From Candidatus Heimdallarchaeota archaeon (GTDB lineage: Archaea > Asgardarchaeota > Heimdallarchaeia > Heimdallarchaeales > Heimdallarchaeaceae): a stretch of 64,000 nt of DNA. A program made the position numbers and the translations under genes. The first letter of the stretch is position 1, and each line of letters opens with the position of its first letter. Below the pieces are notes generated by a model that was given only the letters and a program-made list of their open reading frames with translations, was not told where the DNA came from and did no database searches. The stretch is from contig JABCTC010000014.1 of assembly GCA_018238545.1 (NCBI GenBank), positions 15,933-79,932 on the forward strand, in the 5' to 3' direction. Shown here in pieces: positions 6,807 to 15,736 of the stretch.

Positions 6807-7940
6807 CTATTTTTTGGCTATTAATTTGATTATTGTTATGATCTTGAAAATCACATATGCTAATAATAGATTTATTAACAGAAGGTTGGTGAATTCAGTA
6901 AATATTGGGAACCAAGTTGCTGATTCTAGATAGAAATAACCACCTTCAAAGAGATTCTGCAGAGGATAACTATAAGCGCATATTATTAGAAATGGAACAA
7001 GATTCAGTATAAAGAATGGTCCTTCAAAGTTATATCGTATTTTACCTGATGTTCCTTCAGCTCTTTGATAAGTGATAAAGGCCAAACCTATTCCAATTCC
7101 AAATCCTACTATTGGTAATATGTATAACCCATTCAGACCTGTAATAGCCATAAAACTACCATTTGGGACTTTCGAAAACATTTCGTTGAGAAATTGAGTG
7201 TTTGTTTCTCCAAAGATAGAAACTGCTGTAGCATAATCAAATATAGTATTTGATAAAACTATAAATGCAAGAGCTCCTATAATGCTTAATAATATTATAA
7301 TTTGACCAATGATCTCGAATTTCTTACCATTCAATTGTTTTGTAACGATTTTTCTTGAAATAATAATGAATATAATCATGAATATCAATGAAAAAACAGC
7401 TACAATAGTATCCCAAACTGGAACATTATTTATAAATTCTCCAAATGATATTCTTACTGAATTATTATGAAAATCAGTTTGAGCTTCTTGAAGAGATAAG
7501 AATATACTTACTCCCGATCCAATAAATCCTTGAAGACCGAAAACTATTCCTATTAATAGTAACCCAGTTCTTCCAGTCATCTCAATTGATGCAAAGAATC
7601 CTGCGAAGAAGGCTGTTACAATAAATATGATAAGAAGTGCAGCCAATCCTAATTCAACTGTTTCATATGGGTTGTAGAATGACAATACTGCCGCAGCACC
7701 TATAAGAATAGAAGCAACAACATTTTTTGCCATAGCACATGAAACAAAAATAATTGCCAAAGTGAAAGTTATTGTAATTGGAGTGATCCAGTTCCACAAA
7801 GTTTCTGCTTGTAGAATTCCCAACCATGGAAGAAGGAATTCAGTTACTGCAACCAAACCTGCTCCGAAAAACGTTGATAGTAAGGCTCTAAGCGAGAAAA
7901 ATTGTCCTAGATGAAAGTATTTTACGTTTGTCATATACAT
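6807..7940 (-). CDS. Polytopic membrane protein, unknown function
   Basis: About 10 hydrophobic segments. Confidence 0.75.
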   Translation of the reverse strand: MYMTNVKYFHLGQFFSLRALLSTFFGAGLVAVTEFLLPWLGILQAETLWNWITPITITFTLAIIFVSCAMAKNVVASILIGAAAVLSFYNPYETVELGLAALLIIFIVTAFFAGFFASIEMTGRTGLLLIGIVFGLQGFIGSGVSIFLSLQEAQTDFHNNSVRISFGEFINNVPVWDTIVAVFSLIFMIIFIIISRKIVTKQLNGKKFEIIGQIIILLSIIGALAFIVLSNTIFDYATAVSIFGETNTQFLNEMFSKVPNGSFMAITGLNGLYILPIVGFGIGIGLAFITYQRAEGTSGKIRYNFEGPFFILNLVPFLIICAYSYPLQNLFEGGYFYLESATWFPIFTEFTNLLLINLLLAYVIFKIITIIKLIAKK

Positions 7941-8027
7941 CGTACTCTCTGATATAATTTAACTAATATTATGGATATTAAGTCTTATGGGAAAAAAAAG
8001 CTTTTGGCTGTACCCAATCGAATACAG

Positions 8028-8402
8028 CTATTGAGGTTTCATTGAAATCATCGTACATCCAATGAACGTAATTAAACCAGATCCTGCTGCAATCATTATT
8101 GTCGCAATACTACTGATTGCGGGTTGAAGGGCTGCAAGATCATTTTGCCAAACAGCTAAGTATACTGTAAAAATTATCAGAGCTGCTATCATTAATCCTG
8201 TGAAAACAAGATATGCATTCTTTTCTTCAGATTTGAAGACTCTTGAAACTGATCCTAGCGAGAAACCACCTAATATTCCTATACCTAGATAAAACAAAAG
8301 CCACCAGAACTGTGTAGTTAATTCAACGATGGTAATCGTAACACCTGCGATTCCTATGGCAACTAATATTCCACCAATGAATGATATGGGTCTAGCACTC
8401 AT
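8028..8402 (-). CDS. Small 4-TM membrane protein
   Basis: Four hydrophobic helices; upstream GGAGA RBS-like motif. Confidence 0.75.
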   Translation of the reverse strand: MSARPISFIGGILVAIGIAGVTITIVELTTQFWWLLFYLGIGILGGFSLGSVSRVFKSEEKNAYLVFTGLMIAALIIFTVYLAVWQNDLAALQPAISSIATIMIAAGSGLITFIGCTMISMKPQ

Positions 8403-8516
8403 TAAATCATCTCCAGTATTTTATCTCCAAGTTTATTATATTAATATTTCTAAATCATTTGTGAATACAAATTTACTTTATTAGTTTCAAACCTTTCTTA
8501 ATAATAGAAAGAACAG

Positions 8517-9254
8517 CTATTCTTTAGACAAATCCTCGATAATTGTTCCATCATTCATTACAAGCTGTCTTTGAGCTAAAATTGCTTGGTCATTAGAGTG
8601 AGTAACATAAATTAGCGTTTTTTTATGTTCTTTGCTTAAGTCTATTAGAAGATCAAGGATTCTCTTACCTGTACTTGAATCAAGATTCCCTGTCGGTTCA
8701 TCCGCAAGTATTATCTCTGGATCATTTGCCAGAGCCCGTGCAATTGCAACTCGTTGTTGCTCTCCTCCGCTCAATTGGTCGGGTTTGTGATTTCTCCGTT
8801 CCAACAACCCTACAGCGCCAAGCAACTCTTCTACTCTTATTTTTCGCTCTTCTTTAGGTTTTTTTGATAGAATCAATGGAATTTCTATATTCTTTTCTGC
8901 GTTTAATTCTTCTAACAAATTGAAATTTTGAAAAACATATCCAATTGTTTCTCTTCGTACAAAGCTTAATTCCCTATCACTTAATTTGTTAAGCTCTTGA
9001 CCATCAACTGTAATGGTTCCTGAATCTAAGTAATCTAAAGCCCCAATTAGGTTTAGTAATGTTGTTTTGCCTGATCCCGAAGGACCAACTATGGATACTA
9101 TCTCACCTCTATGTATTGACACTGTAACGCTATCTAGCGCTTTGACCATCACTTCACCTAGAGAATACTTCTTCGAAACATCTATGATATTTATGAAGTT
9201 CTTTTTTGTTTTTCTCTTAGTTTTCCTTGCAGTGCTCGTAGATTCTTGAGACAT
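8517..9254 (-). CDS. ABC transporter ATP-binding protein (LolD/MacB type)
   Basis: [47 protein letters not shown]. Confidence 0.93.
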
Positions 9255-9276: not shown

Positions 9277-9600
9277 TTATTTGTAGTTGTCGATTGTAGA
9301 AAACCTCTCTCTCATGGTTTCCATTTCTTTTATCCAAGCTTCTTCTAGGTTAATATCGTGAAGTATGCATAATTGCAAAAAGAGAGTGAAAACCTGCGCA
9401 AATTCTCTAGATAATCCTTGATTATCTGGTTTTTGGTGACCTTGTTCCTCAGTTTTATATCCTGAAGCAAAAATCAGATGTTTTCCTATCTCTCCTAGTT
9501 CTTCTACTAAATGAATGAAAACGTCGTTGGGGGAAAATTTTAACCAATTACGTTCTTCTAAAAAATTTTTCAAAGTGTTAATTATCTCATCTAATTCCAT
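9277..9600 (-). CDS. MazG-like nucleotide pyrophosphohydrolase
   Basis: ERNW...HLVEELGEI...EFAQV all-alpha NTP-PPase pattern. Confidence 0.75.
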   Translation of the reverse strand: MELDEIINTLKNFLEERNWLKFSPNDVFIHLVEELGEIGKHLIFASGYKTEEQGHQKPDNQGLSREFAQVFTLFLQLCILHDINLEEAWIKEMETMRERFSTIDNYK

Positions 9601-9614
9601 TAAACATCACGTTC

Positions 9615-11690
9615 TTAAGTAGAATACGTTTTTAGTGTCCTTTTTGTAACGCGGGTTTTGCAAATTGGGCACTCTTCTTTTATTTTAAGCCACTGTTCCA
9701 TGTGCTCTTTGTGGGCTAAATTGGTACATGTAGGGCATTCCATAACAGTCTCACCGTGCTTAATTAGTCCTTGACATATTGAGCACTTGGTAGGAAGCTC
9801 CTTACAGTTCTTACATGGTTCATTTACAGATTCAATAACATGCCCACATTTCAAACAGTGTGTCTTTTTAGATGGGAGTCTAATTCTTGTTAGTCTTTCA
9901 AAAGTTGATTGAGTTAGAGAACCTTGATAATAACCATGAGCAATAAGTTGACTAGTCATTTTGAAAATGTCAATTTCTGGCAGATTCAACTTCTCAGCAA
10001 TCGTTACTAGTCGGATTTTCCTTCTTCTGGATTTTTCTATCTCATTTACAACCCTAATATAGATTTCTCCAAGATCTTTTAGCTCTCTACTAGGTAAGAT
10101 TTTCTGGAAAGATTCAACGTATACAGCGCTTCCTCTGAGCTCAATATTTAGCAATCCAGAACCCACTAGTTCAAAAATTATGTTGGTTACAGCTACAGCT
10201 GATTTTTCCCAAATTTTCTGTATAGATTTCAAAGATGTTTTTGGATTAGAAATGATGTAGCCAAATATTTCCTGATAGTGAATAGGCAAGTCATCTAATT
10301 GAACAAGAGGTGGAAATAGAGGAATCTCTTCTGGAATGAGTTTATTTCCTTCTATTGATCCTTTAATTAACCCCTTACCATAGAAACCATATAGTCTTTC
10401 TTTTGCATGGTGCTTGTCAATACCTAATGCAAGCGATATATCTTTGGTTGTAATATAAGCTTTAGAAACAATCATTCCTAGAACTATTTTTTCCCATCTT
10501 TCTAATGTTCCTTCTTGAGCCCTACTATATCTCTTGATTCCTTCTATAATCAGAACGTTTCCACTTAATGAGCATTTTACAAATCCTTCCAAAAGTAAGT
10601 TAATGACTCCTTCTAAAATCTCTCCATCGGTTCTATTCATTAAGGCACCAAGTCTTCGTAACGAAATTTTCTTTTGTGTCGAAAGAAGGCCAAATAGTGC
10701 TTCATAACTAAAGAATGATAAAGTCGCCATCTCCTCTATTGTTCTTGTTGGACTAAATTCAGGTATAGTAACTGGTACAATATCGTTTGTTCCTAAAAAT
10801 ACAACTTGGAAGGTTCCTCTTGCAGTTAGAGTTGCTAAAGTTCTTAGAATTTCGTTTCTTTCCTTTCCTATGAATTTGCTAATCTCTTGATGAGAAGCTT
10901 TTTTGGTTAATAAGAGGTAACCTATAACTTCTTTTTCAATTCCTTGTAAAGTTGATAAAGGAATAATCTTAGGTTCGATAATATATTTTGTAATATTGAT
11001 GAATACTGAAGTGGTTCCAAGTTTTTTCTTCTTGAATTCCAATTCTGCTTCTAATTTCTTTAACAGCAAAAGCTTTGATATTTTTTCTATGATTACTTCT
11101 TTAGGAAATTCAGTAATTTTTGAAATTGTGATTATGTTTGCTTTTCTCAGCATCATAGCAATTCCAACAATAAATGTATCGTCTTCCGTAAGTTTAATTT
11201 TCTCGTCTGGTGCCCAGTTCCATTGTACAAAAACATTCTCTTGCTTTATTGATCCTATAAATAAACCCCGACTTGTCAGGAAAAATAAGTGATTAATAAG
11301 TTCTTTCTTTGATATGCCTACTATTTCTGAAAGATTCGACATACTCACTTTTTCTGATTGAGATAAAAATCCAAGAATTATCTTTCTTAATGGTGTCACT
11401 CGTGAAGAATTTATTTTGGGATACTTGTATATTGTTGCTATAGAAAATATGCTTCTTCTGTATGAACCTCTCACAATGAGAGCTTGTACCATTAACTGAA
11501 TATAATCTTTAATTGCTTCAACTGGAATTTTATAGTTAGTTGAAAACTCTGTTAAATTAATCTCTCTCAGCAAGTATAATTGAGTTAAAATTTGTGCTCT
11601 CATACGTTTTGAAATGTCAACTTCTGGAAGATCTAAATCACTAAACTTAATTTCATAGACATCATCTCTCTCAAAAGCCAGTTGTACCAT
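9615..11690 (-). CDS. Tandem winged-helix (PCI-like) repeat protein with C-terminal Zn ribbon and RING finger (putative E3 ligase)
   Basis: About 8 wHTH-like repeats, then CLKC..CKNC, then CSIC-x12-CPTC-x4-H-x2-H..W..CPIC. Confidence 0.75.
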   Translation of the reverse strand: MVQLAFERDDVYEIKFSDLDLPEVDISKRMRAQILTQLYLLREINLTEFSTNYKIPVEAIKDYIQLMVQALIVRGSYRRSIFSIATIYKYPKINSSRVTPLRKIILGFLSQSEKVSMSNLSEIVGISKKELINHLFFLTSRGLFIGSIKQENVFVQWNWAPDEKIKLTEDDTFIVGIAMMLRKANIITISKITEFPKEVIIEKISKLLLLKKLEAELEFKKKKLGTTSVFINITKYIIEPKIIPLSTLQGIEKEVIGYLLLTKKASHQEISKFIGKERNEILRTLATLTARGTFQVVFLGTNDIVPVTIPEFSPTRTIEEMATLSFFSYEALFGLLSTQKKISLRRLGALMNRTDGEILEGVINLLLEGFVKCSLSGNVLIIEGIKRYSRAQEGTLERWEKIVLGMIVSKAYITTKDISLALGIDKHHAKERLYGFYGKGLIKGSIEGNKLIPEEIPLFPPLVQLDDLPIHYQEIFGYIISNPKTSLKSIQKIWEKSAVAVTNIIFELVGSGLLNIELRGSAVYVESFQKILPSRELKDLGEIYIRVVNEIEKSRRRKIRLVTIAEKLNLPEIDIFKMTSQLIAHGYYQGSLTQSTFERLTRIRLPSKKTHCLKCGHVIESVNEPCKNCKELPTKCSICQGLIKHGETVMECPTCTNLAHKEHMEQWLKIKEECPICKTRVTKRTLKTYST

Positions 11691-13861: not shown

Positions 13862-15736
13862 GTGGAAGATATGAATATTAGAAAAGTTAACACATTAATA
13901 ATCTTAACAATATTATTTGCCTCAATGACATTAGGTTTTAGTGCGAATTATAATGTCCTTGCTGCTAACACAGCAGAACCTACAATAGAGCGTATTATGG
14001 TTGATGAAGAAGAAATAGATTATTACAGTTTTGAAAATAATACAATTGTCACAGTGGAATACTCAGTAAACCGAGACGTTGGAGTAGATGGAGTTATTCT
14101 AATTGGTTTTGGTTCTGAATTGGATATGGATCCATTCAATAGTATTAACCTAACCTGTTCCTACTCTCTACAAGATAGAACATACTATGTTGGTGATATT
14201 GAGCTTACTGGTAACAGTTATTTCAAAGGTTATGGGTGGGTTGGAGATATAACAAATGGAACATATGAAGAAGTTGAAGAATTCAATCATCTTGGTCAAT
14301 GGCACTATTTGTTTGTAAATGAGGATGGTGTCCCTCCACAATTTCATGGAATTGAAAATGCAACATCCACAGGATTTCATACCTACTATGCTCCAGCAAA
14401 CCAAACTAATCATACCATAGTAATTTCTTATAGAGTTTATGGAGGAACAGAAAATGATTCTGTGACTCTTGTCTATTCTGTTTATCGAGATAAACTTTAC
14501 AATGCATCACTCAATATTTTTGATAGCACTGTCATTTTTAAGAATATGACTTATGCTGATGACTCAACAGAAACCTATGTTGTTTTTAACACGACCATAG
14601 AACTCACAGAGAGAACACTTTACTTTGCGGCCAATAATTCTTATGGTTGGGACACATGGGATGATGGTCTTCTTAAGAATAACTTGAATATTTATAAAAT
14701 TAACAATGGATTCGATTTTAATTCAGATACTGTGCTTCATGAATCAATAACAGATGTTGATGAGGTTGATATTATCATAACAACATTAAACAGTACAGAA
14801 TATGACTCATTTGGTATAGGGTATTATGTTATTGAAAGTTTAGAAAATGATACTGAAATTGTTTCATGGACTGAGATTGATGGGACATTACAAAGCAATT
14901 ATACAGAGGTAAACGACCTTGGTTTCAATGATACAATGCGGGAATATAATGTGTCCCTTGGGATATTTGACGTTGATAATATCATCTACTTTGAAGCTTA
15001 CAATATCTATTATGGCGAACTTTACAACGAAACAGTTGGACACTATCACACTATTAGAATTTATGATTCCAAGCCTTATCTAGAACTGTTCCCTGTAAGT
15101 GGATCTTATGTGAACCACGAAGATGTCTCTTTCAGTTTTGATATCTTGTTAAATAGAGGGAATATAACCGAAATCTTAATGGATTATGGTGATGGTTCCC
15201 CCGTTGCTAACCTTACAGCTTTAGAAGCAGATGAAGACACTGGAATATATTATGTAATCCATTCTTATCCTGTAGCAACTGATGGTTACAATGTTACACT
15301 CACAGTTAATACTTCTTTAGGAACATTCAACACTACGACAAACTATCTTTATCTCGATTTCGATGCTCCGACTCTTGAAATCACTGATTTCACGAATAAT
15401 ATCACTGAGATAACAGATGGTTATGTTGAGTTATACTTTACTTACGTTGATGACTATTCTGGTGTTTGGAAAGTAACCATAGATTGGGGAGATGGTATTG
15501 TTCAAAATGTAACAGATGATAATTTTGCTTTCCATTACTATGTTAAAAATGGTACTTATAATGTCGTAGTAGAGGTTCAAGATAAAGGAGGCAACACTTT
15601 CAGCATGAATATTGTTTATACAATTGAACTGCCAGAGACTACTCCAACTGATCAGGCACCATTCGCAGCTCTATCTGTATTTATCTCACTACTTTCCTTG
15701 GGCTGTATTGTATTCCTAATAAGGAAGAGAAAATAA
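13862..15736 (+). CDS. Cell-surface glycoprotein with PKD/Ig-like domains, signal peptide and C-terminal TM anchor
   Basis: N-terminal hydrophobic segment, MDYGDGS and IDWGDG PKD motifs, many N-x-S/T sequons, APF-TM-RKRK tail. Confidence 0.85.
   Translation: MEDMNIRKVNTLIILTILFASMTLGFSANYNVLAANTAEPTIERIMVDEEEIDYYSFENNTIVTVEYSVNRDVGVDGVILIGFGSELDMDPFNSINLTCSYSLQDRTYYVGDIELTGNSYFKGYGWVGDITNGTYEEVEEFNHLGQWHYLFVNEDGVPPQFHGIENATSTGFHTYYAPANQTNHTIVISYRVYGGTENDSVTLVYSVYRDKLYNASLNIFDSTVIFKNMTYADDSTETYVVFNTTIELTERTLYFAANNSYGWDTWDDGLLKNNLNIYKINNGFDFNSDTVLHESITDVDEVDIIITTLNSTEYDSFGIGYYVIESLENDTEIVSWTEIDGTLQSNYTEVNDLGFNDTMREYNVSLGIFDVDNIIYFEAYNIYYGELYNETVGHYHTIRIYDSKPYLELFPVSGSYVNHEDVSFSFDILLNRGNITEILMDYGDGSPVANLTALEADEDTGIYYVIHSYPVATDGYNVTLTVNTSLGTFNTTTNYLYLDFDAPTLEITDFTNNITEITDGYVELYFTYVDDYSGVWKVTIDWGDGIVQNVTDDNFAFHYYVKNGTYNVVVEVQDKGGNTFSMNIVYTIELPETTPTDQAPFAALSVFISLLSLGCIVFLIRKRK

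Follow-up and report, generated by a model that had tools for sequence, protein, structure and literature searches.

The DNA analyzed here, referred to below as the window, is a stretch of 64,000 nucleotides from a Candidatus Heimdallarchaeota archaeon (GenBank assembly GCA_018238545.1, contig JABCTC010000014.1, positions 15,933 to 79,932 of the forward strand). It has a G+C content of 31-37% and lies on contig C7 of a 3.6 Mb genome that is 91.8% complete. According to the list of open reading frames (ORFs) and its translation, the minus strand carries a single ORF with an ATG start at 9615..11690, which encodes a protein of 691 amino acids (aa; P0001) and is a candidate gene for a RING-type E3 ubiquitin ligase. 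In the AlphaFold2 model of this protein, computed with a 23-sequence alignment (mean predicted local distance difference test score (pLDDT) 87.5, predicted template modelling score (pTM) 0.66), eight consecutive winged-helix (WH) units are followed by a small beta-rich zinc ribbon (ZnR) and then by an alpha/beta RING. This layout had been proposed from the sequence (the original prediction) and was borne out by the model, by profile comparison and by the invariance of the zinc ligands. We refer to the gene and its family as WH8-RING. Conservation was assessed in an alignment of 23 close homologues (A1) and in one of 25 diverse members down to 19% identity (A2), and structural similarity of single domains with VIA-align (VIA) and its root mean square deviations (rmsd). 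The features of the gene, with hhalign probabilities and matches to winged helix-turn-helix (wHTH) and other domains, are as follows.

9615..11690, minus strand: whole WH8-RING gene (P0001), 691 aa, with an acidic N-terminal peptide, 8 WH units, zinc ribbon and RING
11616..11690, minus strand: acidic segment at the N-terminus (residues 1-25, net charge -6), in which E7 and R8 do not vary across A1
11415..11615, minus strand: WH1, residues 26-92, from DSSP; hhalign to the other WH units 95.8-97.5%
11211..11399, minus strand: WH2, residues 98-160, from DSSP and hhalign; weak Pfam HTH_24/ArsR matches and a Csa3/CARF-type wHTH match in PADLOC
10977..11192, minus strand: WH3, residues 167-238, whose beta-hairpin wing is longer; VIA-align Z 8-9 to the WH domains of BirA, TFE-alpha and MarR
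10767..10949, minus strand: WH4, residues 248-308; Pfam TrmB 22.4 bits; VIA Z 8.4 to the DDRGK1 WH (8c0d_E)
10713..10766, minus strand: WH4-WH5 linker, residues 309-326, 'RTIEEMATLSFF..'; column identity 0.75 in A1 versus 0.60 for the whole protein
10530..10712, minus strand: WH5, residues 327-387; VIA Z 8.3, rmsd 1.3 A over 57 residues to the CSN3 PCI WH (4d18_C)
10320..10505, minus strand: WH6, residues 396-457, the most conserved WH ('GFYGKGLIKG'); conservation 0.77 in A1
10101..10289, minus strand: WH7, residues 468-530; VIA Z 8.5 to a 26S proteasome lid PCI subunit (22mm_a)
9888..10073, minus strand: WH8, residues 540-601; Pfam PCI 17.6 bits at residues 557-594; VIA Z 8.4 to a TREX-2 PCI subunit (9upb_B)
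9798..9863, minus strand: zinc ribbon, residues 610-631; C612, C615, C626 and C629 invariant in A1 and A2
9651..9791, minus strand: RING, residues 634-680; Pfam zf-RING_2 25.2 bits; phmmer E-value 6e-8; fold matches

The N-terminal acidic segment forms a short strand and a helix in the model. The protein as a whole has a net charge of +23 and an isoelectric point (pI) of 9.3, with each WH unit at pI 8.3-10.1. A word-index search returned 43 near-full-length homologues, almost all of exactly 691 aa, from metagenome-assembled genomes of Candidatus Heimdallarchaeota, among them Ca. Heimdallarchaeum aukensis, Ca. Heimdallarchaeum endolithica and AB_125. A few of these homologues are labelled 'E3 ubiquitin protein ligase' or 'RING finger domain-containing protein' in databases, and JGI names some of them 'DNA-binding transcriptional regulator' or 'TFIIE alpha'. 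The existing database names capture only the RING of the family.

According to DSSP each WH unit of the model has the helix-strand order H-S-H-H-S-S, with the first four units spanning residues 28-91, 100-158, 169-236 and 250-306 and the second four residues 329-385, 398-455, 470-528 and 542-599. BLAST of the protein against itself found no internal repeat, because the units are too divergent, and profile comparison was therefore needed. When the eight sub-alignments of A2 were compared profile against profile, all 28 of the 28 pairs matched at 93-98.7% probability with scores of 33-70. Reversed or column-shuffled control profiles gave a median of 0.3-0.7%, a maximum of 6.5% probability and a top score of 15.6. 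Since all profile pairs score high and the controls low, the WH units are true, old repeats, exactly eight in number. The repeat motif of the original prediction, 'kis...la..l......i...l..l...G.i.g.i', is the consensus of an alignment of 144 WH units. In A1 the linkers on either side of WH6 (residues 386-397 and 456-469) have a conservation of 0.86-0.88.

Among the WH models of Pfam, PCI was the commonest match over the A2 members (19 of 25; best E-value 2.7e-14, best score 53.6 bits), and P0069 (53.6 bits), P0060 (48.1) and P0045 (38.9) scored above its cut-off. Matches to DDRGK, a Pfam model whose WH part is not very specific and which also matches control genomes such as that of E. coli, were found for three of the 25 members and matches to E3_UFM1_ligase for two, both weak and below threshold; P0001 itself had no match at E <= 1 to Pfam E3_UFM1_ligase (PF09743) or DDRGK (PF09756). 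A profile of all 144 WH units searched against all PDB sequences had the WH domain of DDRGK1/UFBP1 as its top match (8b9x_A at 1e-9 and 8c0d_B at 6.7e-9), with further DDRGK1 entries at about 1.6e-7 (8qfc_D and 8ohd_C) and 9e-7 (1wi9). The DDRGK1 match spanned 54 of the 64 profile positions and ranked before all wHTH regulators. It was followed by the archaeal factors PF0095 (3e-5), PH1932 and LrpA and then by CSN4, Rpn9, Rpn3, Rpn6 and eIF3c at 0.004-0.04. The consensus of helix 3 is acidic and hydrophobic ('..EIL..LY.LI..G') without conserved basic positions; it appears to resemble PCI domains more closely than DNA-reading regulators and would argue against sequence-specific DNA reading. The PCI matches, the rank of DDRGK1 in the PDB and this recognition-helix consensus agree with the original prediction that the repeats are not ordinary DNA-binding helix-turn-helix domains. 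The boundary between the WH classes is soft, because the DDRGK model matches control genomes and WH2 matches a Csa3/CARF wHTH.

Structural comparison of single units was less selective. A separate model of WH5-WH6, the most conserved pair (pLDDT 87.4, pTM 0.81), gave the following VIA-align matches.

BirA: Z 8.7, rmsd 1.6 A over 62 residues
DDRGK1: Z 8.6, rmsd 1.7 A over 59 residues
CSN3: Z 8.3, rmsd 1.3 A over 57 residues
Proteasome lid subunit: Z 8.2, rmsd 2.4 A over 67 residues

The DDRGK1 value was obtained for WH6 against 8c0d_E. WH4 likewise reached Z 8-9 with many wHTH domains, and the tied matches of the WH units comprised BirA, MecR2, MarR/ArsR, Z-alpha, TFE-alpha, proteasome and TREX-2 PCI subunits, DDRGK1 and ScpB, so that the winged-helix fold is shared with DNA-binding wHTH regulators (Z 8-9). 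Single WHs matched ESCRT-II at Z 6.6-7.0. PADLOC and NCBIfam returned only generic wHTH matches for P0001, and a search of a language-model atlas was uninformative, with a single weak cluster at 0.83. Sequence profiles separate the WH classes better than structure does. As regards the kinship with eukaryotic WH scaffolds that had been suggested earlier, the profiles retained a PCI/DDRGK1-like WH class but gave no evidence of specific descent from PCI proteins, ESCRT-II, cullins or UFL1; the kinship extends no further than the class of WH domain.

The RING has the spacing C636-x2-C639-x12-C652-x2-C655-x4-H660-x2-H663-x10-C674-x2-C677. Neither these residues nor P675 vary in A1 or A2, and W667 ('EQWL') hardly does. 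The eight RING zinc ligands are also invariant in 43 Asgard cassettes, and the ligands, P675 and W667 are kept down to 19-25% identity. The zf-RING_2 model matches 19 of the 25 A2 members at E <= 1e-3. A phmmer search of residues 600-691 against all PDB sequences matched ARK2C/RNF165 and Arkadia at 6e-8 to 2e-7, followed by EL5, RNF126, RNF24 and RNF38, and a family profile search agreed. In the alignment with ARK2C, C655 falls on ligand 3, N657 on the usual His of ligand 4, H660 and H663 on ligands 5 and 6, and C652 is extra; on the most economical reading of this alignment, the C652-x2-C655 knuckle would supply ligands 3 and 4. The fold of residues 634-691 matched RNF4 (4ap4_A; Z 8.4, rmsd 2.3 A over 57 residues), the Prp19 U-box (Z 8.4, rmsd 1.7 A over 55 residues) and Ring1b. 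By sequence (ARK2C, 6e-8) as well as by fold (RNF4, Z 8.4) the C-terminus is a bona fide RING-H2-like domain. Of the RING with conserved Trp and CPIC motif that had been anticipated, the ligands and W667 stand, but with N657 and the CxxC knuckle it is not a textbook C3H2C3 domain. Conserved positions include I/V638, W667, P675 and the basic K678 after the last Cys, which we take to be residues contacting the ubiquitin-conjugating enzyme (E2) and, for K678, the linchpin, as in the complexes of c-Cbl, RNF4 and RNF38.

The ZnR-RING cassette is found Asgard-wide, in 279 of 399 genomes, with the pattern CxxCG...CPxCG...CxVC...CPxC...AHxxHLxEWxKxKGxCPxC. Its Asgard profile matches RNF4 at 6e-9, and the whole cassette is collinear with the C-termini of WDR19/IFT144 (1.4e-6), MIOS (2.4e-6), WDR24 (1.5e-5) and WDR59 (4e-5); with the family profile these matches were weaker. 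This likeness to GATOR2 and IFT-A subunits hints at a link to protocoatomer-type C-terminal RINGs. The cassette ends varied Asgard proteins, some of them with extracellular-type domains. ORFs of 1013-1022 aa in genomes of family f7 (P0095 and P0099) belong to a Heimdall-class family of about 1000 aa that ends in ZnR-RING, and the N-terminal 900 residues of this family had no Pfam match.

We predicted the complex of residues 600-691 (with alignment) with three zinc ions and a 155-aa UBC-type E2 (G000:C71), the best-scoring UBC E2 of the same genome. The complex scored 0.68 and the best of three controls 0.00. In calibration, 58 of 80 solved complexes attained this level, as did two of 110 mismatched pairs; these figures are only a rough guide here given the use of an own alignment and zinc. 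Three runs had 100% of their contacts in common, with a partner pLDDT of at least 92. The predicted interface is canonical, with RING residues 637-641, 667, 675-676 and 678 facing helix 1 and residues 61-62 and 93-95 of the E2. The AlphaFold-type check with an Asgard E2 that had been proposed together with the ligase assignment thus resulted in canonical docking in silico. A RING and an E2 are a textbook pair, with many such complexes among solved structures, so the docking pass shows likeness, which model memory may explain, and does not establish that binding takes place.

Profile matches in the genome comprised four E2-like genes (UQ_con), two ubiquitin genes and three E1-like genes (ThiF). 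Ubiquitin, E1 (the activating enzyme) and an E2-like gene lie side by side on contig C21 (30298-32105), while contig C114 (22668-31673) carries E1, ubiquitin, a JAMM protease and E2, with a RING protein about 3 kb further on. With ubiquitin, E1 and E2 genes present, a ubiquitin cascade is therefore available. At the C114 ubiquitin operon a gelsolin-like gene adjoins the E2 gene; the two operons are covered by loci L002, L004-L006 and L012. No match to Ufm1 (PF03671) or UFC1 (PF08694) was found in this 91.8%-complete genome, and the UFC1 search matched no control genome either. UFM1-type chemistry was set aside on the grounds that Ufm1 and UFC1 were not found, which does not prove their absence. 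A 257-aa ORF elsewhere in the genome (G000:C86:28634-29182; L050/L052) matched the UFL1 Pfam model at 23.6 bits (cut-off 23.2) and DDRGK weakly; judging from these matches it is probably another small tandem PCI-like WH protein.

Full-length relatives of WH8-RING are confined to few lineages. A HMMER search of 1.84 billion representatives returned 26 clusters below 1e-30, most of them 680-700 aa long, collinear and 23-28% identical, and the named members were from Heimdallarchaeota or Hodarchaeales. When the A2 profile was searched against 399 Asgard genomes, full-length matches were found in all 45 of the 45 genomes of the window's order (families f1-f4 with 29 of 29, 1 of 1, 3 of 3 and 12 of 12) and in three genomes outside it (families f32 and f33); in the remaining Asgard genomes only the C-terminal 85 or so residues matched. 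The gene is single-copy and its length near-fixed at about 691 aa. Its inheritance is vertical and core-like. Among the relatives, P0076 (Hodarchaeales, 942 aa) is a WH-array protein ending in an Mrr-type nuclease, and P0067 (892 aa) has an N-terminal serine recombinase with a helix-turn-helix domain and retains the RING.

In 28 Heimdall species the order GlnA, WH8-RING gene, 105-107-aa gene and ABC ATPase is nearly constant, and the 105-107-aa gene starts about 15-35 bp after the WH8-RING gene across loci. In the window this gene is located as follows.

9277-9600, minus strand: 107-aa gene, 14 bp downstream of the WH8-RING gene; DCTPP1/RS21-C6 (MazG-like) NTP pyrophosphatase, E-value 4e-5 to PDB 2a3q and 6sqw

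The 107-aa pyrophosphatase-like gene had no Pfam match. Whole 10-kb blocks are syntenic in these genomes and conserved order alone therefore says little. GlnA, considered as a candidate substrate for its conserved adjacency, was rejected, given that the synteny spans 10 kb and that the adjacency is broken in L035, L037 and distant relatives. Near the homologues of 23-28% identity, a PKD-domain surface protein of about 600 aa with a C-terminal transmembrane helix and a basic tail recurs (L059 and L021), as do the ABC ATPase and two unannotated membrane proteins of 124 and 377 aa (L060). The window coordinates of these recurring neighbours are 13862-15736 on the plus strand (PKD protein) and 6807-9254 on the minus strand (ABC region). 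Either remnant ancestral synteny or a functional link could account for them; the PKD protein has no relationship to the large gene that lies downstream in L060. No ubiquitin-system gene adjoined the WH8-RING gene in the neighbourhoods examined.

On balance we think it probable that the gene product is a cytosolic, single-chain RING-type E3 ubiquitin ligase with a new scaffold consisting of an eight-WH array, its ligase activity being predicted. The ZnR-RING cassette would bind three zinc ions and recruit a ubiquitin-charged UBC-type E2 through the canonical surface formed by I638, W667 and P675, with K678 at the linchpin position priming E2~Ub for discharge. The eight WHs would not read DNA sequence but would make up a scaffold of defined form and uniformly basic character (pI 9.3), keeping a substrate or large partner within reach of the RING, and the near-invariant linkers around WH5-WH6 would be the likeliest partner-binding or rigidifying elements. 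E2 binding, from the in silico complex, as well as ligase activity and the scaffold role are what we infer. From the basic charge of the WHs and the analogy to UFL1-DDRGK1, our guess is that the target may be the ribosome, chromatin or another assembly containing nucleic acid, although a Lys-rich proteome could also explain the charge.

Several observations weigh against a ubiquitin ligase. The gene lies in neither ubiquitin operon and does not adjoin ubiquitin, E1 or E2, and the C114 operon has its own RING nearby. P0001 scores under the Pfam gathering thresholds for zf-RING_2 (PF13639; 25.2 bits, threshold 27.3) and PCI (17.6 bits, threshold 22), ligand 4 of the RING is unconventional, with N657 at the His position and an extra CxxC knuckle, and the similarly laid-out ZnR-RING cassettes of GATOR2 and IFT-A proteins act chiefly as modules for assembly. 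The ties at VIA-align Z 8-9 leave single WH units structurally indistinguishable from DNA-binding wHTH domains, every WH unit is basic, and DNA-linked domains occur on relatives (Mrr nuclease in P0076, serine recombinase in P0067). Some of these points would fit a non-catalytic assembly scaffold, with the ZnR-RING as an interaction module as in GATOR2/SEACAT and IFT-A, a WH array that nucleates a complex and no ubiquitin transfer. The cassette is collinear with the C-termini of WDR19/IFT144, MIOS, WDR24 and WDR59, PCI-type WHs are classic oligomerization modules (PMC10936438) and the gene is unlinked to those for ubiquitin, E1 and E2. We nevertheless consider such a scaffold unlikely, since the RING is closer to active RING-H2 ligases (6e-9 to 1e-7) than to GATOR2/IFT proteins, conservation extends to the residues predicted to contact the E2 and to the basic residue at the linchpin, and the complex model places the E2 on the canonical RING surface.

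The charge of the protein (net +23, pI 9.3; pI 8.3-10.1 for each WH) is also what would be expected of a nucleic-acid-binding regulator or a chromatin or RNA protein whose WHs bind DNA or RNA, as in SelB, TFIIIC tau138, RPC62 and archaeal wHTH proteins, and whose zinc modules assist binding or dimerization. The weak Pfam and PADLOC matches to TrmB, ArsR, HTH_24 and Csa3/CARF wHTH, the presence of TFIIIC tauB, SelB and RPC62 among the top Foldseek matches of the array, the Mrr nuclease end of P0076, the resolvase start of P0067 and the JGI names of homologues point the same way. This explanation is improbable in our estimation: helix 3 has an acidic/hydrophobic consensus with no conserved basic or polar DNA-reading positions, the nearest sequence relatives are the DDRGK1 and PCI WHs, which bind mainly proteins or ribosomes, the conserved E2-contact surface of the RING would be left unexplained, and a low-GC, Lys-rich proteome may inflate the pI. 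The swapping of effectors among relatives (RING, an Mrr_cat domain matching the ZorD nuclease, an N-terminal resolvase) could alternatively indicate a component of defence or mobile elements in which foreign nucleic acid is recognized by the WH array and acted on by an effector that varies, RING or Mrr nuclease, and some prokaryotic defence systems use ubiquitin-like conjugation. We regard this as very improbable. Defence genes are typically patchy, whereas this gene is single-copy, of fixed length and present in 45 of 45 genomes of the order within a stable housekeeping neighbourhood (GlnA, the dCTPase-like gene and ABC ATPase), and the defence reading was rejected on this core-gene-like distribution and on the PADLOC and NCBIfam matches of P0001, all of them generic wHTH. 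A more specific proposal makes the protein an archaeal equivalent of the UFL1-DDRGK1-type WH-array ligase, or else a still extant relative of that ligase's precursor, with the WHs as a rigid clamp and one-site ubiquitylation by the RING. Such a clamp would dock on a large ribonucleoprotein (e.g. the large ribosomal subunit) or nucleate an assembly like the proteasome lid or COP9 signalosome (CSN) with a JAMM protease; we consider it quite unlikely.

In the literature on Asgard RING, PCI, UFL1 and winged-helix proteins we found no description of the WH8-RING family. We do not assign it to the PCI, UFL1, ESCRT-II or Nse1 families, and it represents a candidate RING ligase of previously undescribed architecture in the archaeal lineages nearest to eukaryotes. 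The archaeal RING E3s described so far are mainly small stand-alone RING proteins in ubiquitin operons, e.g. in the Caldiarchaeum cascade (PMC5654768). WH8-RING by contrast is a large, rigid-looking multi-domain protein, conserved by vertical descent among the Asgard archaea most closely related to eukaryotes. Its predicted substrate-binding part consists of WHs of the class found in the eukaryotic proteasome lid, CSN, eIF3 and UFM1 ligase. If the ligase is active, substrate-specific, scaffold-type ubiquitylation existed in Heimdallarchaeia, the protein would be a tractable single chain for rebuilding an Asgard E1-E2-E3 cascade, and its DDRGK1-like WH units would be a concrete sequence bridge to the origin of PCI and UFL1 scaffolds. 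That the Asgard-wide ZnR-RING cassette aligns over its full length with the C-terminal zinc modules of GATOR2 and IFT-A subunits is relevant to how these protocoatomer-type proteins arose. Were the UFL1-like proposal true, scaffold-type, ribosome-directed ubiquitin-like ligation would have existed in Heimdall/Hod archaea before eukaryogenesis, and the PCI-type WH of eukaryotic ubiquitin-system complexes would likewise predate it in these archaea.

The top Foldseek match of the whole model was the UFL1-DDRGK1 chimera 8b9x (E-value 1e-7; TM 0.09-0.22, rmsd 15 A on UFL1-DDRGK1), followed by TFIIIC tauB, UFL1 on the 60S subunit, SelB, RPC62, STK19 and Nse1, with superpositions at a template modelling score (TM) of 0.07-0.25 and an rmsd of 15-37 A. 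For WH5-WH6 the top match was ESCRT-II 3cuq_A (E-value 1.5e-4; TM 0.30, rmsd 16.5 A), with UFL1-DDRGK1, ScpB and SelB among the others at TM <= 0.31 and rmsd > 10 A; on UFL1-DDRGK1 the pair gave TM 0.29 and rmsd 12.9 A, and predicted models of flexible arrays may not settle geometry. These multi-WH superpositions (TM <= 0.31) do not support a shared array geometry with UFL1-DDRGK1, ESCRT-II, SelB, ScpB, TFIIIC, RPC62, STK19 or Nse1. The PCI, ESCRT-II and UFL1 proteins against which Foldseek had been suggested do appear as successive WHs, but the superpositions show no packing in common.

UFL1-DDRGK1 (8b9x, 8c0d, 8ohd, 8qfc) shares with WH8-RING a long linear array of PCI-like WHs, which there serves an E3 function, and the DDRGK1 WH is the nearest solved sequence relative of the WH consensus (1e-9). 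In contrast to WH8-RING with its fused RING, UFL1 is without a RING and works with UFC1 and UFM1, the UFL1-DDRGK1 array is made of two chains instead of one, and the inter-domain geometry of the models did not superpose (TM <= 0.25, rmsd 13-15 A). The PCI proteins of the proteasome lid, CSN and eIF3 (PF01399) have the same WH subdomain signature. Unlike in these proteins, the model has no helical-repeat (TPR-like) subdomain before any WH according to DSSP, short linkers join the WHs and there are eight WHs per chain instead of one per PCI subunit. Nse1 of SMC5/6 resembles WH8-RING in having WH domains and then a RING in one chain, and ESCRT-II EAP30/EAP45, ScpB, JetB and Nse1 are tandem-WH proteins among the Foldseek matches. 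Nse1, the 'kite' proteins and ESCRT-II, however, have two WHs only and their matches are weak (1e-4 to 2e-2, TM <= 0.31; Nse1 5hvq_C and 7dg2_A at 0.015-0.04), the Nse1-type Pfam model zf-RING-like had no match in P0001, and the WH8-RING gene is without the kleisin or SMC context of the Nse1/'kite' proteins. No full-length eukaryotic homologue and no one-to-one eukaryotic counterpart was found.

With the RING-H2 ligases (Arkadia/RNF111, ARK2C/RNF165, RNF38, EL5 and RNF4) the protein shares the eight-ligand cross-brace RING and the E2-binding and linchpin features 'CxIC', 'W-L' helix and 'CPxC-K/R'. It differs from them in a PHD/Nse1-like spacing (C4H2C2), presumably resembling that of the PHD-like Nse1 RING, in the zinc ribbon that is obligate directly upstream, and from eukaryotic RING ligases in general in that the predicted substrate-binding part is an eight-WH array. 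Within the Asgard archaea, an atlas structure search returned only a Lokiarchaeial family of about 785 aa as well as low-TM GATOR2/IFT rows. This family (loci L053-L058, e.g. L055:445-2790 on the minus strand) is present in 20 of 25 sampled f20 genomes, its nearest ESM Atlas cluster is from Promethearchaeota, and it combines Cys-rich N-terminal fingers with a WH array and a Vps28-like end and has no RING. It is probably the 'HTH/PCI' Vps28-C family of PMC10936438. Zinc fingers and the same WH class are common to both families (hhalign 96% over 286 columns, in several registers), whereas the family of about 785 aa belongs to a different Asgard class, ends differently and passes the Pfam thresholds for E3_UFM1_ligase (66-71 bits), PCI (65-84) and DDRGK (45-51); it is a UFL1-like scaffold tied to ESCRT instead of a RING. 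In Asgard archaea, then, arrays of this WH class seem to have been put to use more than once to scaffold differing effector modules.

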